The notes beneath the pieces were generated by a model. It saw only the letters and a list, made by a program, of their open reading frames with translations. It ran no database searches and was not told the origin of the DNA. A stretch of 32,000 nt of DNA from an uncultured Actinomycetes bacterium. Its GTDB lineage: Bacteria; Actinomycetota; Actinomycetes; S36-B12; CAIYMF01. Shown piece by piece: positions 1,338-29,416 of the stretch; the stretch's first letter is position 1; every line of letters starts with the position of its first letter. The position numbers were made by a program, and so were the translations under genes. Where the stretch lies: contig CAWJMG010000003.1 of the NCBI GenBank assembly GCA_963843975.1, forward strand, positions 570,001 through 602,000, written 5' to 3'.

Positions 1338-2416
1338 GCCAGCTCGGACTCGGCATGGACTACGACGAGCCCGGCACCCGTCGTCGGCGAAGCTCGGGGC
1401 CGGTCGCGGTGATCCTCGCCGTCGTCCTGCTCGGTGTGGTCGCGCTCGGTGCCTTCCTCGGCATCCGGTCGCTCACCGGCAGCGGCAGCGGCGACTTCCA
1501 GGGCGACGGCACCGGCGACGTCACGATCGTCGTGGCCAAGGGCGACTCGCTCACCGAGATCGGCCGCACCCTGGCCGACGCCGGCGTCGTCGCGACGTCC
1601 GACGCCTTCGTGGGCGCGGCCTCTGCCGACTCGCGGGCCGAGAGCATCGCGCCCGGCGCGTACCAGCTGCGCTCGGGCATGAGCGGCGCCGCGGCGCTCG
1701 ACCTCATGCTCGACCCCGCCTCGCGCCTCGTCCAGAAGGTCGTCGTGCCCGAGGGTCTGCGCTTCGAGAAGACCGTCGCCAAGATCGAGAAGGGCACCGA
1801 CCTCACCGCCGACCAGGTCAAGGACTCGCTCTCGCGGGCCGGCTCGCTGGGCCTGCCGTCGTACGCCGAGGGCAACGTCGAGGGCTTCCTGTTCCCTGCG
1901 ACGTACGAGTTCCAGCCCGGCGTCGAGGCCGACGCCGTCGTCAAGGCGATGCTCACCCGCTTCCGCCAGGCGGCCAAGGAGGTCGACCTCGCGACCGAGG
2001 CCAAGAAGGACGGCCTGACCGAGTACGAGGTCATGATCATCGCCAGCCTCGTCCAGGGCGAGAGCGCCCCCGAGGACTACGACAAGGTCGCACGGGTGAT
2101 CTTCAACCGCCTCGACCAGGGCATGCCGTTGCAGCTGGACTCCACGGTGAACTACGCCCTCGGCACGAGCAACATCCAACTGTCGGCCGACCAGCTGAAG
2201 ACCGACAGCCCGTACAACACCTACGTCAACAAGGGCCTGCCGCCGGGGCCGATCAACTCGCCCGGCGAGGCCGCGATGACGGCCGTGCTCAACCCGGCCA
2301 AGGGGAAGTGGCTGTACTTCGTCACGACCGACCCCAAGACGCTCACCACCGAGTTCGCGGTCACGTACGACGAGTTCCTCGTGCTGAAGCGCAAGTTCCA
2401 GGCGAATGTCGGCTGA
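1334..2416 (+). CDS. mltG: endolytic murein transglycosylase MltG (YceG-like)
   Basis: 360 aa with an N-terminal TM helix (VAVILAVVLLGVVALGAF). YceG motifs SLVQGE and NTYVNKGLPPGPINSPG are present. ATGA overlap with ruvX. Confidence 0.9.
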   Translation: MSQLGLGMDYDEPGTRRRRSSGPVAVILAVVLLGVVALGAFLGIRSLTGSGSGDFQGDGTGDVTIVVAKGDSLTEIGRTLADAGVVATSDAFVGAASADSRAESIAPGAYQLRSGMSGAAALDLMLDPASRLVQKVVVPEGLRFEKTVAKIEKGTDLTADQVKDSLSRAGSLGLPSYAEGNVEGFLFPATYEFQPGVEADAVVKAMLTRFRQAAKEVDLATEAKKDGLTEYEVMIIASLVQGESAPEDYDKVARVIFNRLDQGMPLQLDSTVNYALGTSNIQLSADQLKTDSPYNTYVNKGLPPGPINSPGEAAMTAVLNPAKGKWLYFVTTDPKTLTTEFAVTYDEFLVLKRKFQANVG

Positions 2417-3227
2417 TCGCCCCGTGCGTCGCCGTGCGGCCGTGCTGGGCCACCCCGTGGCCCACTCGCGGTCGCCCGTGCTGCACCGGGCGGCGTACTC
2501 CGCGCTCGGCCTCGACTGGGAGTACGGCCTGCACGACGTCACTGAGGAGACCCTCGCGACCTTCGTCGCCGGGCTCGACGCCACCTGGGCGGGCCTGTCG
2601 CTCACGATGCCGCTCAAGCAGGCCGTGATCCCCCTGCTCACGGACGTCGACCTCGTCGCACTGGCCACGGGGGCGGTCAACACCGTCGTGATCGACGACG
2701 ACGGCCTGCACGGATGGAACACCGACGTGCAGGGCATCGTCGCCGCCCTCGACGAGCGCGGGGCGCCGCGCGGCTCGGCGGCCGTGATCGGCGCCGGAGC
2801 CACCGCTCGCTCCGCCGTGGCCGCGCTGGCCCGCCGCGGTCACACCGAGATGGTCGTCGTCGCCCGCCGGCCCGAGGCTGCCGCTCAAGTGCTGGCCACG
2901 GCGCTGGAGGTCGGCGTCCTCGTGGAGGTGCTCGGCTGGGAGTCCCTGGTCGATGCGCTCGAGGCCGAGGTCGTCGTCTCCACCGTGCCCCGGGGAGCCC
3001 TCGACGACGTGGCCGCCGAGGTGGCCGCGGCCCCCGGGCCCCGGGGCTGCCTGCTCGACGTCGTCTACGACCCCTGGCCCACGCCGCTGGGCGCCGCCTG
3101 GTCCCGCGCCGGGGGCGAGGTGGCCTCCGGGCTGGACATGCTCCTGCACCAGGCCGTCCGCCAGGTCGAGCTCATGACCGGCCTGACACCGCCCGTCGAG
3201 GCCATGCGGAGCGCGCTCTACTCCTAG
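2406..3227 (+). CDS. aroE: shikimate dehydrogenase
   Basis: 273 aa. Contains LGHPVAHSRSPVLHRAAYSALGLDWEY and NTD motifs plus the GAGATARSA Rossmann loop. Confidence 0.9.
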   Translation: MSADRPVRRRAAVLGHPVAHSRSPVLHRAAYSALGLDWEYGLHDVTEETLATFVAGLDATWAGLSLTMPLKQAVIPLLTDVDLVALATGAVNTVVIDDDGLHGWNTDVQGIVAALDERGAPRGSAAVIGAGATARSAVAALARRGHTEMVVVARRPEAAAQVLATALEVGVLVEVLGWESLVDALEAEVVVSTVPRGALDDVAAEVAAAPGPRGCLLDVVYDPWPTPLGAAWSRAGGEVASGLDMLLHQAVRQVELMTGLTPPVEAMRSALYS

Positions 3228-3263
3228 GGCGCGCCGCCGTATGCCGGGGTTATCGCCCGCGCC

Positions 3264-3293
3264 GCTCAAGGCGGGGGTCTGGGGCGCCGATGG
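3264..3293 (+). promoter_or_regulatory. sigma-28 (FliA/WhiG)-like promoter candidate S1: GCTCAAG-N15-GCCGATGG
   Basis: Read directly in the aroE/Roadblock intergenic region, ending 52 nt before ATG 3345. Same motif and spacing as sites at 6213, 8040, 13608 and 18292. Confidence 0.5.
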
Positions 3294-3344
3294 CATGCAC
3301 GGAGGGTCGTCTGACCTCCGTCCTGCGACTCGTCGAGGTGTCCC

Positions 3345-3923
3345 ATGTCCGGCCAGCCATCCTCCACCGGTCGCGCAGCCCGTCTCGACCGTGCCCTCGC
3401 CGACCTGCTCGCGCAGGCCCCTGAGCTCGAGGCGGCTGCGGTCGTGTCCTTCGACGGCCTCGCCATGGCCTCCCGCCTGCCCTCGGGCATGGACGAGGAC
3501 CGCGTGGCGGCGATGAGCGCCGCGCTCCTCAGCCTGGGCGAGAAGGCGGCCCAGGGCCTCGGCCGGGGCGACCTGTCCCAGGTCTACGTCGAGGGCGAGT
3601 CCGGCACCGTCTTCCTGATCTCCGCCGACGACGAGGCCGTCCTGGTCGCCGTCGCCGCAGCCGGCGCCAAGGCGGGCCTCATGCTGTACGAGGTCCGCCG
3701 CTCGGCCGCCGCCGTGGGCGAGGTGCTCCGCGAGGCCGCGCCCGTCGTCGAGGCCCCGAACGTCGACGACCAGGCGCTCGCCGACGCCGAGGCGGCGTAC
3801 GAGGCCTACCGCGCGTCCCAGGCGGTGCCCGCCGCCGCCCCGGTCCCGGAGGTCGTGGCCCCGGCCGCGTCCTGGGACCCGTACGCCACGGCTCCCGTGG
3901 CGTCCGCCCCGTCCTGGTCCTGA
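3345..3923 (+). CDS. Roadblock/LC7 (MglB-like) domain protein with Ala/Pro-rich tail
   Basis: 192 aa. Residues 1-125 (...LEAAAVVSFDGLAMASRLPSGMDEDRVAAMSAALLSLGEKAA...GTVFLISADDEAVLVAVA...) fit the Roadblock/LC7 fold family. The C-terminal third is low complexity. Confidence 0.8.
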   Translation: MSGQPSSTGRAARLDRALADLLAQAPELEAAAVVSFDGLAMASRLPSGMDEDRVAAMSAALLSLGEKAAQGLGRGDLSQVYVEGESGTVFLISADDEAVLVAVAAAGAKAGLMLYEVRRSAAAVGEVLREAAPVVEAPNVDDQALADAEAAYEAYRASQAVPAAAPVPEVVAPAASWDPYATAPVASAPSWS

Positions 3924-3957
3924 CCGTCCCGCCACCACCTGAAGGAGGGGCGCACCC

Positions 3958-5263
3958 GTGAACCTCGAGGGCTCCCTCGACGCGTTCGGACTTCCCGACG
4001 TCCTGACGCTGCTCGCCGCCACCGGCAAGTCCGGTGGCCTGCTGCTGCGCCGTGACACGGACGGGGAGGACGGTCGGGTCGACCGGCTCGAGGGCGCGGT
4101 GTGGTTCCGCGAGGGCCGTGTCTGCGGCGCCACGTCGGACCGCTCCCGCGCGTCCCTCGTACGCCGGGTGGTCGGCTCCGGCGCCGTGGACGACAACGCC
4201 CTGCGCCAGGCCGTCGCCCGTGCGGTGTCCGCCGGCGGGGGAGTGGCCCGTGCGCTGCTCGAGTCCGGTGCCGTCGACCCCGACCTGCTCCGCCAGGCGG
4301 CGGACGACCAGACCGTGGACGCCGTGTTCGACCTGCTCCGCTGGTCCGACGGGGAGTTCGCCTTCGACCCAGCAGCCTCCGACCCGGACGACGTAGGGCT
4401 CGCCATCGAGCACGAGCGGCTGCTGGCCGAGGCCCGGGCCCGGGTCGAGGCATGGGGCGCGCTCGTCGTCGTCATCCCTACGCGCGACGCCGTGCTGACG
4501 GTGCCGACCGTGCTCGCGCAGGACCCCGAGGTCTCCCGGGACGAGTGGGCGCTGCTGTCCCTCGTGGACGGCCACCGCCGCGTGCGCGACCTTGTCGAGC
4601 TGCACCGGGGCCGGCGAGTTCGCCGTCACCACGATCCTGGCGCGCCTCGTCCAGCGCGGCCTCCTGCACGTGAAGGACGCCTCCGCGCCCGACCACGTGA
4701 CGGTCGTCGAGCGCCGACTCGGCATGCTCGCCTCCGTCGAGGGTGCGGCGCCGACCGCCCCGTCCGACGAGCCGGCGCAGCCGGTCCAGGCGGTCGAGGA
4801 GCCCACGGCAGGGCCTGGTGCGCTCGGGATGTCGGCCGCTGCAGCACTCGCCGCAGCCCGTGCGGCACAAGGGCTTCCGCAGCCCGGCGTCCCCGGGTCG
4901 GCAGGCCGTGCACCGCGGCACGAGGTCGTCCCGCCCCGCCCGGAGCCGTTCCTGCCCGGACGGCGCCCCGAGCACCCGGAACCCGCACCCGAGCGCGTTG
5001 CCGGGGCGTCCGCGTTCGCCGCCGCTCCTGCTCCTGCCCACGGGATGCCGTCCGCGCCCGCGGCCCCGCACCCGACCACGTCGTCCGGCTACGCGCCCAT
5101 GGCCGAGAGCTCGGGGTCGGTGGACGGCGCCACGGCGCGCTCGCTCGCCGCGCCCGCGCCGCTGGCGGCCCCCGACCCGCGCCACGACGCCACGATCGAG
5201 CGCGATCCGTCCGTCAACCGCAGCCTGCTGCTGCGCCTCATCGCCGGTGTCAGGGGGCTCTGA
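3958..5263 (+). pseudogene. PATAN/DUF4388 domain protein, reading frame broken by +1 shift near 4612
   Basis: GAAGGAGG RBS precedes GTG 3958. The N-terminus MNLEGSLDAFGLPDVLTLLAATGKSGGLLL is the DUF4388/PATAN signature. Frame 1 loses sense after ...DLVELHRG, and the protein continues sensibly in frame 2 (GEFAVTTILARLVQRGLLHV..., wHTH-like) to TGA 5261-5263. One extra C in CGGGGCCGGC explains the shift. Confidence 0.75.
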
Positions 5264-5838
5264 TGGCAGCGCGCAGGCATCGCCGCCAGGGAGGGCAGGC
5301 CGTCAAGATCGTGGTCACCGGCCCCTTCGCGGCCGGCAAGACCACGCTCATCCGGACGATCAGCGAGATCACCGTGCTCTCGACCGAGCGCGGGATCACG
5401 GACGAGACCCGGAGCCGCAAGGCCGAGACGACGGTGGCCATGGACTTCGGCCGCATCACGATCGATCGCGACCTCGTGCTCTACCTGTTCGGCACGCCCG
5501 GCCAGGAGCGGTTCGACTTCATGTGGGAGATCCTCGGCGAGGGGATGCTCGGCTACGTCCTGCTCGTGGACGCCGCGCGCCCGGAGACCCTGGACGAGGC
5601 GGCCGGGATCCTCGCGGCCTTCCGCCGCATGGCTCACGTGCCGTTCGTCGTCGCGCTGAACCGCACGACCGAGCTCGACCCTCGGGCCGAGGACCGGGTC
5701 CGCGAGGCCCTGGAGCTCTCGCCGTCGACGCCGGTCGTCCCGTGCGACGCGACCGACAAGGACTCCGTGAAGGCCGTCCTGCTCGCCCTGCTGTACAGCG
5801 TGCTGGACGACATCGAGGCCACCGCGGCCCACGCCTAG
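5263..5838 (+). CDS. small Ras-like ATP/GTP-binding protein (MglA/CvnD family)
   Basis: 191 aa. P-loop GPFAAGKTT, switch II FGTPGQERF, and ALNR in place of NKxD. The TGATG overlap with the PATAN gene suggests translational coupling. Confidence 0.85.
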   Translation: MAARRHRRQGGQAVKIVVTGPFAAGKTTLIRTISEITVLSTERGITDETRSRKAETTVAMDFGRITIDRDLVLYLFGTPGQERFDFMWEILGEGMLGYVLLVDAARPETLDEAAGILAAFRRMAHVPFVVALNRTTELDPRAEDRVREALELSPSTPVVPCDATDKDSVKAVLLALLYSVLDDIEATAAHA

Positions 5839-5847
5839 GAGCATCCC

Positions 5848-6183
5848 GTGCGACTGCTGCGCTGGCCCGCCCGCCGACCCGAACCGGTCGGTCGGCACTC
5901 GCGCGTCATGACGGGCGTGAGCATGCCGGGTGCCGCGGCGTCCCTCGTGGCCTCCACCGTGACCGCCGAGAGCGTCGTCGCCGAGTCGGTCGCCGGCGCA
6001 GCCGAGGCGGCTCTCGAGGCGCAGGAGACCGCGGAGCTGTCACGCAGCGTGACCACGGACGCCGGTCGTGCCGTCACCCTCGGCTTCTCCGACGGTGCCA
6101 GCGTCGCCCTGCAGGACGACGACCCGCGCGTGCGCACCTTCCGGGCCGCGGCCGCCGCCCTCCTGGATGCGCCCGGTCGATGA
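5848..6183 (+). CDS. hypothetical protein (111 aa, no recognisable domain)
   Basis: An AGGAG lies 6 nt upstream of GTG 5848. GC3 is high throughout. It is the last gene of the Roadblock-PATAN-GTPase unit. The start could instead be ATG 5908. Confidence 0.45.
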   Translation: MRLLRWPARRPEPVGRHSRVMTGVSMPGAAASLVASTVTAESVVAESVAGAAEAALEAQETAELSRSVTTDAGRAVTLGFSDGASVALQDDDPRVRTFRAAAAALLDAPGR

Positions 6184-6212
6184 CACGGCGTCCCTCGTGG
6201 ACGCCCGTACGG

Positions 6213-6242
6213 GCTACAGACGAGGCGCGGCTGTGCCGAACA
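6213..6242 (+). promoter_or_regulatory. sigma-28-like promoter candidate S2 (diverged): GCTACAG-N15-GCCGAACA
   Basis: Lies in the intergenic region upstream of pilB with the same spacing as S1 and S3. Weaker match in both halves. Confidence 0.3.
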
Positions 6243-6274
6243 GGTGATGAGGGGCCTTCCAGCGGAGGGTCCTG

Positions 6275-7984
6275 ATGGCACCGGCGCACGCCGGGCGGTC
6301 CGATGCGGGAGGGCGCGACGTGAAGCAGCTGGGGGACATCCTCCTCGAGGGCGGTCTGGTCACCCACGACCAGCTCGCGGTCGCCGTCGACGAGCAGAAC
6401 CGGCTCGGCCGCAGCCTGGGCCGTGTCCTCGTCGACCAGGGCGTGCTCACGGAGTCCCAGCTCGTCGCCTCGCTCGCCGCCCAGATCGGCATGCGGTTCG
6501 TCGACCTCAGCGACATCCAGATCGACGGCTCGGCCCTCGGCCGCGTGCCGGGCCACGTCGCCCGGCGCCACACCGCGATCCCGATCGGCTACGAGGAGGG
6601 CAAGCTCCTCGTCGCGATGGCCGACCCGGCCAACGTCTTCGCGATCGACGACATCCGCTCCGCGGCCGGGATCGACGTCAAGCCCGTCGTCGCCACGCGC
6701 AACGACGTGGCCGCGGCCATCGACCGGTTCTACCGCGCCGGCGACGAGCTCAACGACCTCACCTCCGAGCTGGACACGGGGGAGGACGAGGAGGACCTGT
6801 CCAAGGTCAAGGAGATCACCGAGGACGCCCCGATCGTCCGCTACGTGAACCTCCTGATCACCCAGGCCATCCAGGACCGTGCGTCCGACATCCACCTCGA
6901 GCCGACCGAGCACGACCTCCGCGTGCGCTACCGCATCGACGGCGTGCTGCACGAGGTCATGCGCTCTCCTCGGGCGATCCAGTCCGGCGTCATCAGCCGC
7001 CTGAAGATCATGGCCGACATCAACATCGCCGAGCGCCGCATCCCGCAGGACGGCCGACTGTCGGTTGCCGCGCACGGCAAGAAGGTCGACCTCCGCGTCG
7101 CGACCCTCCCCACCGTCTGGGGCGAGAAGGTCGTCATGCGTATCCTCGACAACTCAACGGCGCGAATGGATCTCGCCGATCTCGGCTTCAGCCCGCACAA
7201 CTTCGGCATCTTCGAGAAGTCGTACGTGAAGCCGTACGGGATGATCCTGGTCACCGGTCCGACCGGTTCGGGTAAGTCGACCACGCTGTACGCCACGCTC
7301 AACGTGGTGAACAAGCCCGAGGTCAACATCATCACGGTCGAGGACCCGGTCGAGTACCGCCTCCCCGGCGTCAACCAGGTGCAGGTCAACAACAAGGCCG
7401 GCCTCAACTTCGCCGCAGCCCTGCGCTCGATCCTGCGCTCGGACCCCGACATCGTCCTCATCGGTGAGATCCGCGACCACGAGACGGCGCAGATCGCCGT
7501 CGAGGCCTCGCTCACCGGTCACCTGGTGCTCTCGACCCTGCACACCAACGACGCCCCCAGCGCGATCGTGCGACTGACCGAGATGGGCATCGAGCCCTTC
7601 CTGGTCGGGTCCGCCGTCGACGCGGTGCTCGCCCAGCGTCTCGCCCGCAGGCTCTGCAGCAAGTGCAAGGAGCCGTACGTGCCGGACGCCGAGCAGCTCG
7701 AGCACATCCGGTTCAAGCCGTACCCGGGGGACCCGGAGCCCAACTTCTTCCGGCCGGTGGGCTGCGCGAGCTGCGCCAAGACCGGCTACAAGGGCCGCGT
7801 CGCGATCCACGAGGTCATGGCGATCAGCGACGAGATCGAGCGCCTCACCGTCGAGCGCGCGTCGTCCACGCGGATCATGGCCGTCGCTATCGAGCAGGGC
7901 ATGCGCACGCTCCGCGAGGACGGTCTGCTCAAGGCCTCCCAGGGCATCACCACGATCGACGAGGTCTTCCGCGTCGTCGCCTGA
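6275..7984 (+). CDS. pilB: type IV pilus assembly ATPase PilB (GspE family)
   Basis: 569 aa. N-terminal MshEN/T2SSE_N repeats (LLEGGLVTHDQLAVAVDEQ.., LVDQGVLTESQLVASLAAQ). Walker A GPTGSGKST, the Asp/His boxes, and a tetracysteine motif CSKC...CASC. Both the ATG 6275 and the alternative GTG 6320 start have a GGAGGG-type RBS. Confidence 0.92.
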   Translation: MAPAHAGRSDAGGRDVKQLGDILLEGGLVTHDQLAVAVDEQNRLGRSLGRVLVDQGVLTESQLVASLAAQIGMRFVDLSDIQIDGSALGRVPGHVARRHTAIPIGYEEGKLLVAMADPANVFAIDDIRSAAGIDVKPVVATRNDVAAAIDRFYRAGDELNDLTSELDTGEDEEDLSKVKEITEDAPIVRYVNLLITQAIQDRASDIHLEPTEHDLRVRYRIDGVLHEVMRSPRAIQSGVISRLKIMADINIAERRIPQDGRLSVAAHGKKVDLRVATLPTVWGEKVVMRILDNSTARMDLADLGFSPHNFGIFEKSYVKPYGMILVTGPTGSGKSTTLYATLNVVNKPEVNIITVEDPVEYRLPGVNQVQVNNKAGLNFAAALRSILRSDPDIVLIGEIRDHETAQIAVEASLTGHLVLSTLHTNDAPSAIVRLTEMGIEPFLVGSAVDAVLAQRLARRLCSKCKEPYVPDAEQLEHIRFKPYPGDPEPNFFRPVGCASCAKTGYKGRVAIHEVMAISDEIERLTVERASSTRIMAVAIEQGMRTLREDGLLKASQGITTIDEVFRVVA

Positions 7985-8039
7985 CGGCGCCGCGCACGCT
8001 GTGCAACCCCCGGCTCTGCGCCGAGCGGGTGCCCCGAAG

Positions 8040-8069
8040 GCTCAAGCAAGGCTCTCGGGCGGCCGATGG
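8040..8069 (+). promoter_or_regulatory. sigma-28-like promoter candidate S3: GCTCAAG-N15-GCCGATGG
   Basis: Both half-sites are identical to S1. About 50 nt upstream of the pilT start. Confidence 0.5.
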
Positions 8070-8118
8070 TCAGCAAGGACGCCGGCACGCGAGGTGCCGG
8101 CCCGAACGAGGAGTGGCC

Positions 8119-9498
8119 GTGGAGTCCATGCCGTACGCCGGACAGACGTCCGTGCAGCCGGGCGCCTCGCCGTACCCGTCGGGCGCGATCCCCGAGGCTG
8201 CGGCACCCGTGGCCGCCCCGGTGGGATACCCGGCGCCCGCCCTGGCCACGGCCACGGTTGCGCCCGTCGCGCCGATGCCGATGCCTGCCGCCCCGGCCGC
8301 GGCCCCGCCGGTCCTGTCGGCACCTGAGCCCGCGCCGGCCGGCGTGGTGAACAACCCGCTGAACGACCACGGCACGGGCGTCGCCCAGGTGGTCCCCACG
8401 CGCCAGTCCACCGAGCAGACCATCCGCGAGGACGACTTCAGCCTCGTCGACGCCCTGCTGACCATGCTCGACCGAGGTGCCTCCGACCTCCACCTGACCT
8501 CGGGCGCACGCCCGACCATCCGTGTCAGCGGATCGCTCGTGGGCCTCGAGGAGTTCGAGGTCCTCACGCCTCCGGTGCTGCAGCGCGTCATCTACTCCGT
8601 CCTCACCCAGGGCCAGCGCCTGAAGTTCGAGGAGGAGCTCGAGCTCGACTTCGCGTACTCGCTGCCCGGGCGCGCCCGCTTCCGCGTGAACGTCTACAAG
8701 CAGCGCGACAGCCTCGGCGCGGCCTTCCGCATCATCCCGTTCGAGATCAAGAGCCTCGAGAGCCTCGGCGTCCCGCCGTCGGTCGCGAACTTCGCCAGCC
8801 TGCCGCGCGGCTTCGTGCTCGTCACGGGACCCACCGGCTCGGGCAAGTCGACCACGCTCGCCGCGCTGGTCGATCTGGCGAACCGCACGCGGCACGACCA
8901 CATCATGACCGTCGAGGACCCGATCGAGTTCCTCCACCGGCACAAGAGCTGCATCATCAACCAGCGCGAGGTCGGCGAGGACACCTGGTCGTTCGCCAAC
9001 GCCCTCAAGCACGTGCTGCGCCAGGACCCCGACATCATCCTGGTCGGCGAGATGCGCGACCTCGAGACGATCTCGGTCGCGCTCACCGCCGCCGAGACCG
9101 GTCACCTCGTCTTCGCGACGCTGCACACGCAGGATGCCGCGCAGACCATCGACCGCGTCATCGACGTCTTCCCGCCGCACCAGCAGCAGCAGGTCCGCCA
9201 GCAGCTGGCGATGTCGCTCCAGGGCGTCGTCTGCCAGACGCTGTGCAAGACGGCCGACGGCCACGGTCGCGTCGTCGCGACCGAGGTCCTCGTCGTCACC
9301 CCCGCCGTCCGGAACCTGATCCGCGAGGGCAAGACCCACCAGATCTACTCGGTCATGCAGGCGGGTGCGCAGTTCGGCATGCACACCCTCGACCAGCACC
9401 TCGCCGAGCTCGTCCGCACCCGCCGGGTGACGTACGAGCACGGTGTGGAGAAGTGCCACCACATCGAGGACTTCAACCGGCTCGTCGGCCGGGCCTGA
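8119..9498 (+). CDS. pilT: twitching-motility retraction ATPase PilT with ~100-aa Pro/Ala-rich N-terminal extension
   Basis: The core begins at FSLVDALLTMLDRGASDLHL. Walker A GPTGSGKST, GEMRDLETI and ATLHT motifs are present. GAGGAG sits 5 nt before GTG 8119 (alternative ATG 8128). The upstream part of track ORF 7663.. overlaps pilB and is not used. Confidence 0.9.
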   Translation: MESMPYAGQTSVQPGASPYPSGAIPEAAAPVAAPVGYPAPALATATVAPVAPMPMPAAPAAAPPVLSAPEPAPAGVVNNPLNDHGTGVAQVVPTRQSTEQTIREDDFSLVDALLTMLDRGASDLHLTSGARPTIRVSGSLVGLEEFEVLTPPVLQRVIYSVLTQGQRLKFEEELELDFAYSLPGRARFRVNVYKQRDSLGAAFRIIPFEIKSLESLGVPPSVANFASLPRGFVLVTGPTGSGKSTTLAALVDLANRTRHDHIMTVEDPIEFLHRHKSCIINQREVGEDTWSFANALKHVLRQDPDIILVGEMRDLETISVALTAAETGHLVFATLHTQDAAQTIDRVIDVFPPHQQQQVRQQLAMSLQGVVCQTLCKTADGHGRVVATEVLVVTPAVRNLIREGKTHQIYSVMQAGAQFGMHTLDQHLAELVRTRRVTYEHGVEKCHHIEDFNRLVGRA

Positions 9499-9521
9499 GC
9501 GGCGAGGAGAGGCATCAAGCC

Positions 9522-10757
9522 ATGGCAGCCACAGCGACCTTCCAGTACGCGGTTCGTGACCGCAGCGGCAAGGTAGTCACCGGAAAGATCGAGGCGGACT
9601 CGCCCGCCCAGGTCGCGTCCAAGCTCAAGAGCATGGGCTACGCCCCGCTCAAGATCAGCTCGGTCGAGAAGGGTGGCCTGAAGACCGACATCACCCTGCC
9701 GACCCTGGGCAACAAGGTGAAGCTGAAGGAGATCGCGGTCTTCAGCCGGCAGTTCGCCACGATGATCAACTCGGGCCTGTCGATGCTGCGCTCGCTCTCG
9801 ATCCTCGAGGAGCAGCAGCCGAACAAGAAGTTCGCCACCGTCATCGGCGAGATCCGCGGCGAGGTCGAGAGCGGCTCTGCGCTGTCGACCTCGATGGCCA
9901 AGCACCCCGACATCTTCCAGCCGCTCATGATCAACATGATCAAGGCCGGCGAGGTCGGCGGCTTCCTGGACGCGGTGCTGGTGCAGATCGCCGACAACTA
10001 CGAGGCCGAGGTCAAGCTCCGCGGCAAGGTGAAGTCGGCCATGACCTACCCGGTCGCGGTCCTCGTCATGGCCGTGCTGCTCACGATCGGCATGCTGCTG
10101 TTCGTCGTCCCGACGTTCGCGAAGCTGTTCGAGGACCTCGGCGGCGAGCTGCCGGCGCCGACGCAGATGCTGGTGAACCTCTCCAACTTCCTCAAGGTCG
10201 GGATCATCCCGATCGTGATCCTGTCGATCGTGTGGTTCATCGTCTGGATCCGCATCAAGAACACCGACCGCGTCCGCAACTTCGTCGACCCGATCAAGCT
10301 GAAGGTGCCCATCTTCGGCGGCATGTTCCAGAAGATCGCCCTCGCCCGCTTCTGCCGCAACCTCGGAACGATGCTGCAGTCCGGCGTCCCGATCCTGCAG
10401 TCGCTCGACATCGTCGCGGACACCTCGGGCAACAAGGTCATCACGCATGCTGTGCACGACATCGAGGAGAGCGTGCGCCGGGGCGAGAGTCTCACCCAGC
10501 CGCTGTCCCAGCACGCGGTCTTCCCGGCCATGGTCGTGCAGATGCTGGCGGTCGGCGAGGACACCGGTGCCCTGGACTCGATGCTCGCGAAGATCGCCGA
10601 CTTCTACGACGCCGAGGTCGAGGCGACCACCGAGCAGATGACCGCGCTCATCGAGCCGCTCATGATCGCCGTGCTGGGCGGCATCGTCGGGTCGATGATC
10701 ATCGCCCTGTACATGCCCATCTTCAAGATCTTCGACCTCATCGGCGGCAGCAAGTAG
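9522..10757 (+). CDS. pilC: type IV pilus platform protein PilC (GspF family)
   Basis: 411 aa starting at ATG 9522 after a GAGGAGAGG RBS. Two T2SSF repeats (FSRQFATMINSGLSMLRSL.., FCRNLGTMLQSGVPILQSL..) and three TM segments. Confidence 0.92.
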   Translation: MAATATFQYAVRDRSGKVVTGKIEADSPAQVASKLKSMGYAPLKISSVEKGGLKTDITLPTLGNKVKLKEIAVFSRQFATMINSGLSMLRSLSILEEQQPNKKFATVIGEIRGEVESGSALSTSMAKHPDIFQPLMINMIKAGEVGGFLDAVLVQIADNYEAEVKLRGKVKSAMTYPVAVLVMAVLLTIGMLLFVVPTFAKLFEDLGGELPAPTQMLVNLSNFLKVGIIPIVILSIVWFIVWIRIKNTDRVRNFVDPIKLKVPIFGGMFQKIALARFCRNLGTMLQSGVPILQSLDIVADTSGNKVITHAVHDIEESVRRGESLTQPLSQHAVFPAMVVQMLAVGEDTGALDSMLAKIADFYDAEVEATTEQMTALIEPLMIAVLGGIVGSMIIALYMPIFKIFDLIGGSK

Positions 10758-10779
10758 CCGCAGGGGTGATCAGCACGGT

Positions 10780-10803
10780 CGGGCGGGCCCTCGGGCCCGC
10801 CCG
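10780..10803 (+). terminator. GC-rich hairpin after pilC
   Basis: GGGCGGGCC-cucg-GGCCCGCCC, a 9-bp perfect stem, 24 nt after the pilC stop. There is no clear U-tract, as is common in high-GC actinobacteria. Confidence 0.5.
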
Positions 10804-10919
10804 TCCTGCGTCCACGGGCCGGTGGCGCTGCTCGGGATTGATCCCCCGACCGGGTGATGTGGGCGGAAAGTTCTCGGGAACCTTAAGGACCGGGGTCCGG
10901 AGCGACCGACACCGTCTCT

Positions 10920-11057
10920 GTCATGGAAATCCATGACCGCCGGACACCAGAACGGGCACACCCACCGCGAGGTGGGGCCGCAGAGCCAGGGGACCCACGT
11001 GGTCAGCCCAGCAGCCTCGGTCAGGCCGGACGGCGGTCGCTTCGCAGGAGGAACACA
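10920..11057 (+). promoter_or_regulatory. structured 5' leader of pilin 1; candidate c-di-GMP-I (GEMM-I)-like riboswitch
   Basis: P1 is GACCGCCG (10935-42) paired with CGGCGGTC (11031-38). GGGCACA follows at 10954-60. P2 is CCCACC-GCGA-GGTGGG at 10961-76 (GNRA loop). GCCGCAGAGCC follows at 10977-87. P3 is GGGGACC-cacgt-GGTCagCCC at 10989-11009. The RBS AGGAGG is at 11046-51. Copy 2 shows compensatory changes. Confidence 0.45.
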
Positions 11058-11480
11058 ATGTTCTCTCGCATCCGCACGTCGATCTCCGACAAGGACTCGG
11101 GCTTCACCCTCATCGAGCTCCTCGTCGTCATGATCATCATCGGCATCCTTGCCGCCATCGCGATCCCGACCTTCCTCAACCAGCGCAAGAACGGCTACCG
11201 CTCCGCGCTGAAGAGCGACCTCAAGAACGCCGCCACCGCGCTCGAGTCGGCAGCCGTCGACAAGCAGGGCGACTTCACCCTCGGCGGCACCGTCGCCGCC
11301 AACACGGTGCTCCCGGGCGCCACCACGGTCGAGTTCACCCCGACCGCCGGCGACACCGTCACCGTCAAGACCGTCACCTCGACGACCTACTGCCTGCAGG
11401 CCACGAACGACTCCCTCGGCGTCGCCGAGCCGTGGAAGTTCGACAAGACCTCTGGCGCACCGATCGCCGGCACCTGCTGA
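11058..11480 (+). CDS. pilA: type IV major pilin paralog 1 (prepilin)
   Basis: 140 aa. Leader MFSRIRTSISDKDSG, then cleavage/methylation motif G|FTLIELLVVMIIIGILAAIAIP (F+1, E+5). C-terminal Cys pair (TYC...AGTC-stop). AGGAGG RBS. Confidence 0.92.
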   Translation: MFSRIRTSISDKDSGFTLIELLVVMIIIGILAAIAIPTFLNQRKNGYRSALKSDLKNAATALESAAVDKQGDFTLGGTVAANTVLPGATTVEFTPTAGDTVTVKTVTSTTYCLQATNDSLGVAEPWKFDKTSGAPIAGTC

Positions 11481-11494
11481 CCCCAGCACCCCGG

Positions 11495-11524
11495 GACGGG
11501 GCGGACCGACCGGTCCGCCCCGTC
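11495..11524 (+). terminator. hairpin after pilin 1
   Basis: GACGGGGCGGAC-cgaccg-GTCCGCCCCGTC, a 12-bp perfect stem. Confidence 0.55.
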
Positions 11525-11569
11525 TCGCTGCGCCGAGAGGGTGACGCTCCGTGATCGTGGACGTCGAAG

Positions 11570-11598
11570 GCTCAAGCCCGCCTCACAGGCGTCGAAGA
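11570..11598 (+). promoter_or_regulatory. sigma-28-like promoter candidate S4: GCTCAAG-N14-GTCGAAGA (weak -10)
   Basis: The -35-like half is exact, the -10-like half matches GCCGATAA at 5/8. It ends 7 nt before the leader palindrome at 11606. Confidence 0.3.
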
Positions 11599-11605
11599 AG
11601 CATCT

Positions 11606-11747
11606 GTCATGGAAATCCATGACCGCCAGAGACCAGAACGGGCACACCCGCCGCGAGGCGGGGTCGCAAAGCCAGGGGACCCTCCGGGTCGGCCCAGCTA
11701 CCTCGGTCCATCCGGTCGACGGCGGTCGTCCTTCAGGAGGAACACCA
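11606..11747 (+). promoter_or_regulatory. structured 5' leader of pilin 2; candidate c-di-GMP-I (GEMM-I)-like riboswitch
   Basis: Same architecture as 10920-11057. P2 is CCCGCC-GCGA-GGCGGG (an A:U pair replaced by G:C). The core segment GTCGCAAAGCC is at 11663-73. P1 is GACCGCC paired with GGCGGTC at 11621-27 and 11721-27. Confidence 0.45.
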
Positions 11748-12170
11748 ATGTTCTCTCGTATCCGCACGTCGATCTCGGACAAGGACTCGGGCTTCACGCT
11801 CATCGAGCTCCTCGTCGTCATGATCATCATCGGCATCCTTGCCGCCATCGCGATCCCGACCTTCCTCAACCAGCGCAAGAACGGCTACCGCTCGGCCCTC
11901 AAGGCCGACCTGAAGAACGCCGCCACCGCGCTCGAGTCGGCCGCTGTCGACAAGCAGGGTGACTTCACCCTCGGTGGCACCCTGGCCGCGAACACGGTCA
12001 TCCCCGCTGCCGGTGTCGAGTTCACCGCCACCAGCGGCAACACCGTGACCGTCAAGTCCGTCACGGCGACGACCTACTGCATCGAGGCCACCAACGCCTC
12101 GCTCGGTGCGGCTGAGCCGTGGAAGTTCAACAAGGCGACCGGTGCGCCGGTTGCGGGCGCCTGCCCGTGA
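11748..12170 (+). CDS. pilA: type IV major pilin paralog 2
   Basis: 140 aa. The N-terminal 60 aa are nearly identical to paralog 1, with the same G|FTLIELLVV motif. Carries the TYC...AGAC Cys pair. Confidence 0.92.
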   Translation: MFSRIRTSISDKDSGFTLIELLVVMIIIGILAAIAIPTFLNQRKNGYRSALKADLKNAATALESAAVDKQGDFTLGGTLAANTVIPAAGVEFTATSGNTVTVKSVTATTYCIEATNASLGAAEPWKFNKATGAPVAGACP

Positions 12171-12206
12171 TGAACTGACCGACGGCCTGGCCGTCGGAGC
12201 ACGAAG

Positions 12207-12236
12207 CGAGGGGCGGGCCTGCGGGCCCGCCCCTCG
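12207..12236 (+). terminator. hairpin after pilin 2 (preceded by a second small hairpin 12179-12197)
   Basis: CGAGGGGCGGGCC-tgcg-GGCCCGCCCCTCG, a 13-bp perfect stem, followed by GCGCGTTTCGCC. Confidence 0.55.
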
Positions 12237-12301
12237 CGCGTTTCGCCTAGGCCCTCCGGGTGAGATCCAGGCGTGAGGCAGACCCGTACGGGTCACACGC
12301 T

Positions 12302-12330
12302 CTCAAGCGTCCGGATGTCGGGCCGATCCC
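12302..12330 (+). promoter_or_regulatory. sigma-28-like promoter candidate S5: TCTCAAG-N14-GCCGATCC
   Basis: Intergenic, upstream of pilin 3. The -10-like half matches GCCGATAA at 6/8. Confidence 0.4.
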
Positions 12331-12467
12331 CGAAGGGTCATCGAATTTCATGTCCGTCGCGATCGACGCCCACCCAGCACCACCTTCATCCGGCTGGGCG
12401 CCCGGTGGGTCACCCGTGCGCGGGAGCCTGCTGGTCGAGCGTCGACGGTCGTCCTAGGAGGAACGTC

Positions 12468-12887
12468 ATGTTCTCTCGTATCCGCACGTCGATCGAGGAG
12501 GAGGACTCGGGCTTCACGCTCATCGAGCTCCTCGTCGTCATGATCATCATCGGCATCCTCGCCGCGATCGCCATCCCGACCTTCCTCAACCAGAGGAAGA
12601 ACGGCCACCGCTCGGCACTCAAGAGCGACCTGAAGAACGCCGCCACCGCACTCGAGTCGGCGGCGGTCGACAAGTTCGGCGACTTCACCCTCGGCGGCAC
12701 CCTGGCGGCCAACTCGATCCTGCCAGCCGCAGGAGTCGAGTTCGTGGCCACCACCGGGGACACCATCAGGGTGATCTCGTCCAGCTCGACCACGTACTGC
12801 CTCCAGGGCGTCAACGACGTCCTGACAGCGGCCGAGACCTGGAAGTTCGACAAGGCCGTCGGCGCCCCGGTCGCCGGCACCTGCTGA
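12468..12887 (+). CDS. pilA: type IV major pilin paralog 3
   Basis: 139 aa. MFSRIRTSIEEEDSG|FTLIELLVV... with TYC...AGTC. TAGGAGG RBS. Confidence 0.92.
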   Translation: MFSRIRTSIEEEDSGFTLIELLVVMIIIGILAAIAIPTFLNQRKNGHRSALKSDLKNAATALESAAVDKFGDFTLGGTLAANSILPAAGVEFVATTGDTIRVISSSSTTYCLQGVNDVLTAAETWKFDKAVGAPVAGTC

Positions 12888-12901
12888 ACGCACCAGCACC
12901 T

Positions 12902-12949
12902 CGAAGGGCCCGGCTGGGCGACGGAGACGTCGACCGGTCGGGCCCTTCG
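12902..12949 (+). terminator. compound hairpin after pilin 3
   Basis: The outer stem is CGAAGGGCCCG/CGGGCCCTTCG (11 bp). It encloses an inner hairpin CGACG-gaga-CGTCG. Confidence 0.4.
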
Positions 12950-13013
12950 CGCTGCCGGGGCAGATGTCATCCGACTGGCGGACCCTGAACGGCTCAGCAG
13001 AGACGAACCTCCG

Positions 13014-13042
13014 GCTCAAGTCCCGCTCCACAGCACCGATAA
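13014..13042 (+). promoter_or_regulatory. sigma-28-like promoter candidate S6: GCTCAAG-N14-ACCGATAA
   Basis: Best -10 match in the window (7/8 to GCCGATAA). About 50 nt upstream of pilin 4 ATG 13096. Confidence 0.5.
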
Positions 13043-13095
13043 CAGGACCTGAGAGAGCTGCTCGGTGCGGCTCGACACCGAAAGGATCCGCCGCC

Positions 13096-13515
13096 ATGCT
13101 CACGCGACTTCGCACCTCGATCCACGACAAGGACTCGGGCTTCACCCTCATCGAGCTCCTCGTCGTCATGATCATCATCGGCATCCTTGCCGCGATCGCG
13201 ATCCCGACCTTCCTCAACCAGCGCAAGAACGGCTACCGCTCGTCGCTGAAGGCCGACCTGAAGAACGCTGCCACCGGCCTCGAGTCCGCTGCTGTCGACA
13301 AGCAGGGCGACTTCACCCTCGGCGGCACCCTCGCCGCGAACACCGTCCTCCCGGCCGGCACGGTCGAGTTCACGCCCACCACGGGCAACACCGTCACCGT
13401 GAAGACCGTCACGGCCACCACGTACTGCATCGAGGCCAGCAACGCCTCGCTCGGCGCGGGCGAGCCGTGGAAGTTCGACAAGGCCACCGGTGCTCCCATC
13501 GCGGGTGCCTGCTGA
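13096..13515 (+). CDS. pilA: type IV major pilin paralog 4
   Basis: 139 aa. MLTRLRTSIHDKDSG|FTLIELLVV... with TYC...AGAC. The short leader has no riboswitch-like structure. Confidence 0.92.
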   Translation: MLTRLRTSIHDKDSGFTLIELLVVMIIIGILAAIAIPTFLNQRKNGYRSSLKADLKNAATGLESAAVDKQGDFTLGGTLAANTVLPAGTVEFTPTTGNTVTVKTVTATTYCIEASNASLGAGEPWKFDKATGAPIAGAC

Positions 13516-28813: not shown

Positions 28814-29416
28814 GTGACAGCGAACGAGAGCGCTCTGCGGATCGTGGTGGCCGAGGATGAGGCGCTCATCCGCCTCGACCTCGTGGAGATGCTGCGCGAG
28901 GAGGGCTACGAGGTCGTCGGCGAGGCCGGGGACGGCGAGAACGCCGTACGCCTGGCCGAGGAGCTGCGCCCCGACGTCGTGATGCTCGACGTGAAGATGC
29001 CGGTGCTCGACGGCATCAGCGCGGCCGAGCGGATCGCCACCGCACGGATCGCCCCGGTCGTGATGCTCACGGCGTTCGCCCAGCGCGAGCTCGTGGAGCG
29101 GGCGCGCGACGCGGGCGCGATGGCCTACCTCGTGAAGCCGTTCACGCAGGGCGACCTCGTGCCCGCCATCGAGCTCGCCGTCAGCCGGTACGCCGAGATC
29201 GTGACCCTCGAGGCAGAGATCGCCGACCTCGGCGAGCGGTTCGAGACCCGAAAGCGCGTGGAACGCGCCAAGTCGTTGCTGCAACAGGCGTACAAGCTCT
29301 CGGAGACCGACGCGTTCCGGTGGCTGCAGAAGTCCGCGATGGACCGCCGCCTCACGATGCGCGAGGTGGCCGACGTGGTCATCCGCGAGGTCGGGGCCAC
29401 CGGCAGCGAAGGGTGA
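28814..29416 (+). CDS. pdtaR: ANTAR-domain response regulator (PdtaR-like)
   Basis: 200 aa. REC domain (RIVVAEDEALIRLDLVEML...DVVMLDVKMP...YLVKPF) followed by ANTAR (KRVERAKSLLQQAYKLSETDAFRWLQKSAMDRRLTMREVA). TAGGGT lies 6 nt before GTG 28814. Confidence 0.9.
   Translation: MTANESALRIVVAEDEALIRLDLVEMLREEGYEVVGEAGDGENAVRLAEELRPDVVMLDVKMPVLDGISAAERIATARIAPVVMLTAFAQRELVERARDAGAMAYLVKPFTQGDLVPAIELAVSRYAEIVTLEAEIADLGERFETRKRVERAKSLLQQAYKLSETDAFRWLQKSAMDRRLTMREVADVVIREVGATGSEG

Follow-up and report, generated by a model that had tools for sequence, protein, structure and literature searches.

A conserved Roadblock-PATAN-GTPase gene module 5' of the pilus motor gene pilB in a group of Actinomycetes suggests a G-protein switch for Gram-positive type IV pili

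We analysed a stretch of 32,000 nucleotides (nt) from an uncultured Actinomycetes bacterium (assembly GCA_963843975.1, contig CAWJMG010000003.1, positions 570,001 to 602,000), hereafter called the window. In the window, four co-oriented genes encoding a Roadblock/LC7 protein, a protein with a PATAN (DUF4388) domain and a winged helix-turn-helix (wHTH), a small GTPase and a small conserved protein are followed directly by the type IV pilus genes pilB, pilT and pilC (Table 1). The G+C content of the window is 66-76%, and third-codon-position G+C, which is high in the four genes, marks genes of the + strand almost exclusively. Within this module the genes are separated by 34, -1 and 9 nt; the stop codon of the PATAN gene and the start codon of the GTPase gene overlap as TGATG at 5261-5265, and GGAGG-like sites precede the starts at 3958 and 5848. 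Coordinates, gaps and GGAGG-like sites thus agree with an earlier model-made reading of the letters alone (the original prediction), which had described four tightly packed genes of the same strand with a TGATG overlap and junctions spaced for ribosome binding. That reading had also spoken of three domain families fused into one unit; they are separate genes within one operon and there is no fusion. PilB, PilT, PilC, PilM, PilO, a prepilin peptidase and N-methyl pilins are encoded in one cluster, which identifies a type IVa pilus system. As the region from the Roadblock gene (robl) to pilO sits between aroE and aroC of a conserved backbone, the whole block appears as one insertion. The nearest named organism is Longivirga aurantiaca (Sporichthyaceae), and most relatives are metagenome-assembled genomes labelled Nanopelagicales, Frankiales, Sporichthyaceae or Acidothermaceae.

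Family assignment with Pfam, a check proposed in the original prediction, matched the first three products to Robl_LC7, DUF4388/PATAN and ATP_bind_1 and gave no match for the fourth, of 111 residues; NCBIfam gave no family-level name for the Roadblock, PATAN or small proteins. The Roadblock protein matches PF03259 (Robl_LC7) with E=2.8e-18 (65.9 bits, cutoff 23). The motif SFDG (SFDGL) is invariant in 73 orthologues and contains the Asp-Gly pair that typifies MglB proteins paired with GTPases of Groups 2-5 of the MglA family (PMC4316618). The total length of these orthologues ranges from 164 to 318 aa, with a variable Pro/Ala-rich linker of ~30 to 180 residues, and a C-terminal tripeptide (S/T)W(S/T/R), at 3912-3920 in the window, is conserved among them (n=73). 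Similarity to a CvnB, the Roadblock protein of conservons, was marginal (E=0.007).

The GTPase matches PF03029 (ATP_bind_1), the family of conservon GTPases, with E=5.5e-20 (72.6 bits, cutoff 27), and matches to Ras, Arf and EF-Tu were sub-threshold. It is more than 80% identical across the 120 closest protein clusters found, and its nearest annotated relatives are Streptomyces ATP/GTP-binding proteins (46-49% identity) encoded inside conservons of the order kinase-Roadblock-DUF742-GTPase. A PDB sequence search with the GTPase returned no close structure; the best match was Arf (E=5e-5), and no MglA chain was found at E<0.01. The G1 (GPFAAGKTT), G2 (T56-T57, in E-T-T) and G3 (GTPGQ) motifs are invariant in 77 orthologues, so that the protein is under selection as a working NTPase. 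The G4 motif reads N-R-x-x with no Asp at +3 (N133 in 77/77 and R134 in 76/77 orthologues), and the ALNR sequence first noticed in place of NKxD is therefore kept through the family. G5 reads C-D-A-T-D-K, with T164 in 76 of 77 orthologues. By the group criteria of Wuichet and Sogaard-Andersen (PMC4316618), the GTPGQ in G3, the Thr in place of the arginine finger and the coupled Roadblock gene place the GTPase in Groups 2-5 of the MglA family. The TVPGQ in G3 and the arginine finger beside the G2 threonine that mark Group 1 (MglA/SofG) are absent, as are the Group 2 (CvnD) signatures NxFD in G4 and DAR in G5. The label "MglA-like" thus needs correction: judged from its sequence, the GTPase, of 191 aa, is a relative of the conservon protein CvnD and not a classical MglA.

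The second protein matches PF14332 (DUF4388/PATAN) with E=4e-22 (79 bits, cutoff 25), as do all 70 members of its family. In an AlphaFold2 (AF2) model built with 70 sequences, residues 1-262 have a predicted local distance difference test (pLDDT) score above 90 and form a beta domain with a helical insertion (66-127), a long helix (152-172), a winged helix (194-239) and a further helix (246-261), and residues 263-433 are disordered except for two short helices. The Pfam match, the winged helix and the disordered tail agree on the PATAN protein with a wHTH-like segment and a long Pro/Ala-rich tail that had been predicted. Three strongly conserved motifs, GMSAAAALAAARAAQGL, VVPPRPEPFLPGRRPEHPEP and IERDPSVNRSLLLRLIAGVRGL, are carried by the tail, the last being the invariant C-terminus of the protein. 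No receiver domain (REC; Response_reg) was found in the PATAN protein, which sets it apart from response regulators of the PatA type. Alignment of the PATAN family with one Streptomyces DUF742 (CvnC) protein gave an hhalign probability of 0.1%, and Pfam DUF742 matches were weak and limited to 3/70 members (best E=0.009). A Foldseek search of the PDB with the model found no global match at E<0.1, and a tblastn search of 72,556 plasmids with the PATAN-wHTH region was negative.

Local Foldseek matches of the helical insertion were to the MshEN/GSPII-B domains of PilF, PilB and MshE (8pdk, 7lko, 5htl), with a probability of 0.84-0.98 and a root-mean-square deviation of 1.4-2.6 Å over ~50 residues, none of them significant by E-value. 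An MshEN domain is recognised by two 24-residue motifs, RLGxxhhxxGhhxxxxLxxxLxxQ, with 5 residues between them. The insertion aligned in register with the N-terminal profile of the neighbouring PilB (hhalign, E=3e-4 to 7e-4), with a score of 24.3 versus a mean of 10.4 (sd 2.1, maximum 18.2) in 200 column shuffles. In the insertion, the glycines at the turns and the hydrophobic core are preserved, and of the two Gln only the second; the first is Ala, and SLV and GVA stand where the RLG triads would be. In MshEN domains the RLG triads contact guanine, and with these triads replaced, binding of cyclic di-GMP (c-di-GMP) by the insertion is doubtful. The N-terminus of PilB (6320-6470) has two well-preserved MshEN 24-mers, KQLGDILLEGGLVTHDQLAVAVDEQ and RSLGRVLVDQGVLTESQLVASLAAQ, so that PilB itself is probably a c-di-GMP receptor. 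In Synechocystis, the PATAN domain by itself is sufficient for binding to the N-terminal region of PilB and to the N-terminus of PilC (10.1101/2021.06.11.447907). An MshEN-like surface of PATAN facing the MshEN domain of PilB is an attractive idea, and no paper connecting the PATAN insertion with MshEN was found.

The PATAN gene, taken at first for a single open reading frame (ORF), is intact in relatives and broken in the window by an extra G at 4602. This 1-nt insertion shifts the frame after residue 215: residues 1-215 lie in one frame, and wHTH, tail and stop codon (5263) in the +1 frame. With no stop before the GTPase frame, the upstream frame continues into it, and a spurious ORF of 626 aa (3958-5838) results. 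In a DNA alignment, the window reads GAGCTGCACC versus GAGCT-CACC in a 95%-identical metagenome contig; at this site GAGCTCACC is the form without the frameshift and GAGCTGCACC the frameshifted one. Eleven PATAN homologues continue in frame across the site as ...DLVELTGAGEFAV..., and the intact proteins of relatives are 400-445 aa long. Programmed frameshifting at 4602 was ruled out, as there is no slippery motif at the site and all relatives are in frame. An independent, 100%-identical Logan short-read contig (L084, ERR12037365) stops exactly at ...GAGCT. Since this identical contig ends at G4602, we take the base to be either ambiguous in the assembly or polymorphic, rather than a programmed frameshift.

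Alternatively, the module could be decaying in the source genome, the PATAN gene being a pseudogene and the unit non-functional here whatever its role elsewhere. The insertion relative to intact relatives would fit with such decay, as would the absence of the exact 626-aa read-through ORF from the protein collection, in which neighbouring proteins of the same 2.76-Mb contig are present. However, the PATAN gene shows no second lesion, the remaining three genes of the module are intact and 94-100% identical to those of relatives, and the identical short-read contig halts at G4602, as assembly by de Bruijn graph would where a variant or an error occurs, which makes an artefact or a minority allele possible. 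We consider decay a real possibility, yet a rather unlikely one.

An iterative hidden Markov model located the gene of the small fourth protein immediately 3' of the GTPase gene in 65/73 loci, which shows it to be a real conserved gene; its 68 homologue clusters in a large protein database are all annotated as hypothetical. The N-terminus of the protein is basic (RLLRW..GRHxR); a VPGAAAxLV motif and a variable linker follow, and the C-terminal segment reads VxLGFADGxxVxLxxDDPRVRTFRAAAxALL. Only the C-terminal ~35 aa (residues 73-108) were confident in the AF2 model, as a beta-hairpin plus a helix, and Foldseek with this model gave noise only, such as chemokine-like beta-beta-alpha matches, and no informative neighbour.

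A scan of one genome per species identified 241 stretches that code for proteins related to the PATAN protein; the 80 best were retrieved, each with flanks of 10 kb. In all 70 loci with enough sequence the Roadblock gene immediately precedes the PATAN gene, and in essentially all loci (~78) the GTPase gene immediately follows it. The tabulation of module and pilB that the original prediction had called for placed pilB downstream of the module in 67 of the 69 informative loci, all within one broad clade: the distance was below 800 nt in 56, 0.8-2.5 kb in 10 and 7.3 kb in the remaining one. In one of the two exceptions (L067), inverted minor-pilin genes adjoin the module; in the other (L072), the module is followed by genes of exopolysaccharide (EPS) type such as precede pilB in L076, and pilB may lie just past the fetched flank. 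In several relatives, a polytopic protein of ~500-630 aa resembling O-antigen ligase, possibly a pilin glycosylation enzyme, or an EPS/glycosyltransferase block is encoded between the small ORF and pilB. The gene 5' of the Roadblock gene is aroE in 70 loci, and no kinase gene is present.

Two putative promoter motifs for WhiG, a sigma factor of the sigma-28 family, lie 5' of the Roadblock gene and of pilT (Table 1) and are conserved in relatives, which bears out the proposal that the module and pilT carry the same sigma-28-like promoter. WhiG control of pilus clusters is known in actinobacteria (PMC8325347, PMC12871210), being documented for Rubrobacter and Actinoplanes (PMC8325347), and has been predicted for a few other families. 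Published WhiG queries are T(A/C)AA-N16-GCCGA within 200 bp of a start (WhiG2; PMC12871210) and CTCA-N16-17-GCCGA. In the window, WhiG2 matched at 3266-3293 and 8042-8069, within 200 bp of start codons. A loose sigma-28-like pattern gave 5 matches in the window versus 0.27 expected, and a position weight matrix built from the sites of relatives gave only two, before the Roadblock gene and pilT. In 1.23 Mb of related loci, 165 WhiG2 sites were found on the coding strand versus 7 on the other strand. Of the coding-strand sites, 63 fell in the aroE-Roadblock gap (77 loci have the Roadblock gene), 44 in the pilB-pilT gap (both genes are present in 55 loci), 8 in the GTPase-pilB gap (69 loci have pilB), about 35 at pilin genes and 1 upstream of alaS, with essentially none at ruvX, mltG and aroE. 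In 36 strict sites, GCTCAAG and GCCGATGG are invariant and the spacer is unconserved, which constitutes a phylogenetic footprint.

Because the WhiG-type motif is found at the module and pilus genes and not at the housekeeping genes, promoter analysis separates the module from neighbours that are equally syntenic. The Roadblock gene has the motif and pilB rarely does, which places the module in the pilus regulon and would make pilB dependent on the promoter of the module. The simplest reading of the sites would be three WhiG-type transcription units, robl-patan-gtpase-small-pilB, pilT-pilC and the pilins, with pilB probably the fifth gene of the module operon. The gap between the small ORF and pilB (6184-6320; 91-136 nt) has no canonical terminator. 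A scan of 3000-11200 for sigma-70 promoters and intrinsic terminators found none on the + strand, a result that is uninformative at 70-75% GC; on the - strand there was one terminator match, no more than shuffles give. The fold of 6184-6320 includes a 10-bp GC-rich hairpin at ~6249-6272 with no U-tract. Combined, the adjacency in 67/69 loci and the WhiG-type promoter that groups the module with pilB sustain the proposed tie between this G-protein unit and the pilus.

Orthologues of PilB begin at the GTG of VKQLGD, which suggests a start at 6320 and not at 6275. PilT carries a Pro/Ala-rich N-terminal extension of ~105 aa (8119-8445) that starts with VESMPY; among 53 orthologues the extension measures ~50-390 aa, mostly 120-310, and a VE(T/S)xx(Y/F) peptide is usually found at or near the N-terminus. 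Such an extension is uncommon among PilT proteins, and regulators could dock there.

Table 1. Features of the module, of its surroundings and of related loci. Positions are those of the window unless a related locus is named.
Feature	Position	Strand	Remarks
Roadblock/LC7 protein, 192 aa	3345-3923	+	Robl domain ~residues 1-130, Pro/Ala-rich disordered linker, C-terminal S-W-S
PATAN/DUF4388-wHTH gene	3958-5263	+	434 aa once repaired; frame 1 = 3958-4601, frame 2 = 4603-5263
Alpha-helical insertion of PATAN domain, residues 66-118	4153-4311	+	24+5+24 layout of MshEN module, RLG triads absent
CvnD-like small GTPase, 191 aa	5263-5838	+	ATG overlaps PATAN stop codon (TGATG)
Conserved small protein, 111 aa	5848-6183	+	no Pfam or NCBIfam match
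Putative WhiG (sigma-28 family) motif GCTCAAG-N15-GCCGATGG	3264-3293	+	52 nt 5' of Roadblock start codon
Second putative WhiG-type motif, same pattern	8040-8069	+	50 nt 5' of pilT start
pilB, extension ATPase with MshEN N-domain	6275-7984 (or start 6320)	+	T2SSE E=1e-143, MshEN E=1e-22
pilT, retraction ATPase	8119-9498	+	TIGR01420 E=5.8e-146
pilC, platform protein	9522-10757	+	Pfam T2SSF E=7.7e-65
Genes after pilC			in order: four tandem pilin paralogues, three minor pilins, pilD, pilM, pilN-like, pilO, one more gene
Four tandem pilin paralogues	11058-13515		N-terminal halves near-identical
WhiG-like site with one-base-shorter spacer (TCAAGCGTCCGGATGTCGGGCCGAT)	12303-12327		141 nt before third tandem pilin
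alaS (partial), ruvX, mltG, aroE	aroE 2406-3227		housekeeping genes 5' of module
aroC, aroK, aroB, aroQ, efp, nusB			3' housekeeping flank of pilus block
O-antigen-ligase-like insert, locus L037	12415-14244
O-antigen-ligase-like insert, locus L044	12099-13985
O-antigen-ligase-like insert, locus L063	12040-13914
O-antigen-ligase-like insert, locus L055	11380-12867
EPS/glycosyltransferase insert, locus L076	12192-17817		between small ORF and pilB
EPS/glycosyltransferase insert, locus L072	12097-21162		between small ORF and pilB
ANTAR response regulator (REC plus ANTAR)	28814-29416		adjoins periplasmic-binding-protein gene, 3' of aro/efp/nusB block; unrelated to module

We propose, with a probability of about 0.6, that the type IV pilus has a regulatory G-protein module of its own, made up of the four genes, co-transcribed with pilB and directed at the motor. 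In this proposal, a WhiG promoter would transcribe the four genes and pilB as one unit, and the module would be a stripped-down, kinase-less relative of the conservons, the actinobacterial G-protein systems (AGPS). The CvnD-like GTPase would be the switch and the CvnB-like Roadblock protein a regulator of its hydrolysis of the GTPase-activating protein (GAP) type. The PATAN-wHTH protein, in the position of CvnC, would serve as an adaptor or effector coupling the nucleotide state of the GTPase to PilB and/or PilC, perhaps also to PilT, through the PATAN domain and the short conserved motifs of the disordered tail. The small fourth protein may be a co-regulator. Candidate docking sites are the tail motifs of the PATAN protein, the C-terminal tryptophan peptide of the Roadblock protein, the N-terminal extension of PilT and the small protein. 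As its output, the module would set the timing, place or strength of pilus extension and not gene expression. The GAP role of the Roadblock protein, the binding of PATAN to PilB/PilC and the nature of the output are what we infer by analogy with known systems. In the mycobacterial Mfp system, MfpD, which is homologous to CvnB, is a GAP, and MfpC, which is homologous to CvnC, is a guanine nucleotide exchange factor (GEF) (PMC13343842).

Several observations weigh against a pilus-directed module. Firstly, the PATAN gene is frameshifted in the window itself. Secondly, alaS-ruvX-mltG-aroE are equally conserved neighbours of the module in all loci, so that synteny alone is weak evidence for a tie to the pilus. 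Furthermore, 80/80 loci come from one broad clade (Sporichthyales, Nanopelagicales, Frankiales, Acidothermales-like), and the adjacency may reflect descent. The gap before pilB folds to -77.3 kcal/mol (z=-2.1) and could hold an unrecognised promoter or attenuator; as it folds moderately although it has no canonical terminator, co-transcription is inferred. Finally, rate covariation was analysed by the mirror-tree approach in 26 species with complete gene sets, controlled for the divergence of four housekeeping neighbours. The rates of the Roadblock, PATAN and GTPase proteins co-vary (partial r 0.58-0.74), which speaks for the proposal. The module gave partial r values of -0.45 to +0.09 with PilB (whole, N- or C-terminal part) and PilC, and of 0.15-0.28 with PilT, within the range of the housekeeping controls. 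This result gives no support for co-adaptation of PATAN and PilB; PilB and PilT vary very little, which makes the test weak.

A further point against is that the MarR-like wHTH of the PATAN protein would also suit a DNA-binding role. The main alternative is a transcriptional regulator, in which the PATAN-wHTH protein binds DNA under modulation by the GTPase and the Roadblock protein and controls pil or other genes and not the motor. The winged helix at residues 194-239 is confident in the AF2 model, weak matches to MarR_2 (40/70 members) and HTH_47 (28/70) were found, and conservons influence gene expression in Streptomyces (PMC13343842). However, these wHTH matches are all below Pfam thresholds, and in conservons this position belongs to DUF742/CvnC proteins, which serve the GTPase as GEF and do not act on DNA (PMC13343842). 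In cyanobacteria, PATAN is a motor-binding output domain for which a DNA-binding role was judged unlikely (10.1101/2021.06.11.447907). Systems of the MglA type act on the location of protein complexes, and the conserved tail motifs and terminal peptides of the module resemble protein-protein docking sites. A transcriptional role is considered improbable as compared with one at the motor.

Less probable still is that the module acts, as a general regulator of the conservon kind, on something other than the pilus, such as polar growth, division, the envelope or EPS, and adjoins pilB only through inherited gene order: the equal synteny of alaS-ruvX-mltG-aroE, the lack of rate covariation with PilB or PilC and the EPS or O-antigen-ligase-like genes between module and pilB in several relatives would fit with it, but the WhiG-type promoter is common to pilT and the pilins and not to the housekeeping neighbours, pilB is usually without such a promoter of its own, the block from robl to pilO is one insertion between aroE and aroC, and the link between PATAN and PilB has independent experimental support.

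The proposed pilus-directed module shares parts with several known systems. Like the conservons of the same phylum, it has a GTPase nearest to CvnD (46-49% identity, PF03029, GTPGQ, TT in G2) and a Roadblock gene two genes 5' of it, in the order B-x-D. In contrast to them, it lacks the histidine kinase CvnA, aroE being in its place 5' of the Roadblock gene; its middle gene encodes PATAN-wHTH and apparently not DUF742; its G4 and G5 motifs are NRxx and DAT and not the NxFD and DAR of CvnD; and it has the extra small protein and sits in a pilus cluster under a WhiG-type promoter. With the MglA-MglB system of Myxococcus, Thermus and Bdellovibrio it has in common a small GTPase of the Ras superfamily with a Roadblock-fold partner, a functional link to type IV pili, which MglA/MglB control in these organisms, and PATAN genes that are sometimes neighbours. 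The module GTPase differs in having neither arginine finger nor TVPGQ, and Myxococcus mglAB is not encoded with pilB/pilT whereas the module probably belongs to a Gram-positive pilB operon. The PATAN domain with its alpha-helical insertion is shared with the cyanobacterial PATAN-REC proteins of the PatA type (PixG, PixE, LsiR), in which PATAN acts as the output domain by binding the N-terminal region of PilB and the N-terminus of PilC. Here, it comes without a receiver domain or a chemosensory operon, is joined to a wHTH and a disordered tail, and would receive its presumed input from the GTPase and not from phosphorylation. Finally, the WhiG/RsiG (c-di-GMP) pilus clusters of Rubrobacter and Actinoplanes have T(A/C)AA-N16-GCCGA at several points of the pil cluster, as here; the papers on them name no Roadblock, PATAN or GTPase genes, and the present clade is not among the families with predicted WhiG control of pili.

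The pairwise links are already known: MglAB with pili, PATAN with the MglAB neighbourhood, PATAN with PilB binding, conservons as actinobacterial G-protein systems and WhiG with pili. That PATAN genes neighbour mglA/mglB genes was noted in 2006 (Makarova) and in 2014 (PMC4316618). In the literature we found no description of a CvnD-like GTPase with Roadblock, PATAN-wHTH and small proteins, without a kinase, in a Gram-positive pilB operon. The combination is apparently undescribed, and our searches did not contradict the initial view that the system is uncharacterised. A recent survey of AGPS anchors on cvnA (PMC13343842) and would therefore miss a variant without the kinase. More tentatively, and as a doubtful extension of the proposal, the module may represent a hitherto unrecognised, kinase-less class of actinobacterial G-protein system in which PATAN-wHTH stands for CvnC, a mini-protein has been added and the effector is the pilus motor, the PATAN insertion being a degenerate MshEN domain that would pair or compete with that of PilB.

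GTPases of conservons (AGPS) are widespread in Actinomycetota, with few known targets; the module offers a concrete candidate effector for a CvnD-type GTPase. To our knowledge, yeast two-hybrid analyses in cyanobacteria are the sole source on what the PATAN domain does biochemically, and the regulation of Gram-positive type IV pili has barely been studied. The module is a natural system for studying how PATAN couples a signal to PilB. If the more tentative reading, of a kinase-less class acting on the motor, is true, it would be the first conservon-type GTPase with a direct target readable from the genome and the first case of G-protein control of a Gram-positive pilus, and pilus extension would integrate WhiG/c-di-GMP transcriptional control with a post-translational GTPase switch. 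The set of species-representative genomes has 241 matching stretches, and cultured organisms such as Longivirga aurantiaca are among the carriers. A unit conserved 5' of the pilus motor gene in a large actinobacterial group suggests a G-protein switch controlling Gram-positive pili, and it is a candidate explanation for pilus control, be it in adhesion, motility or DNA uptake, in abundant freshwater and soil actinobacteria.

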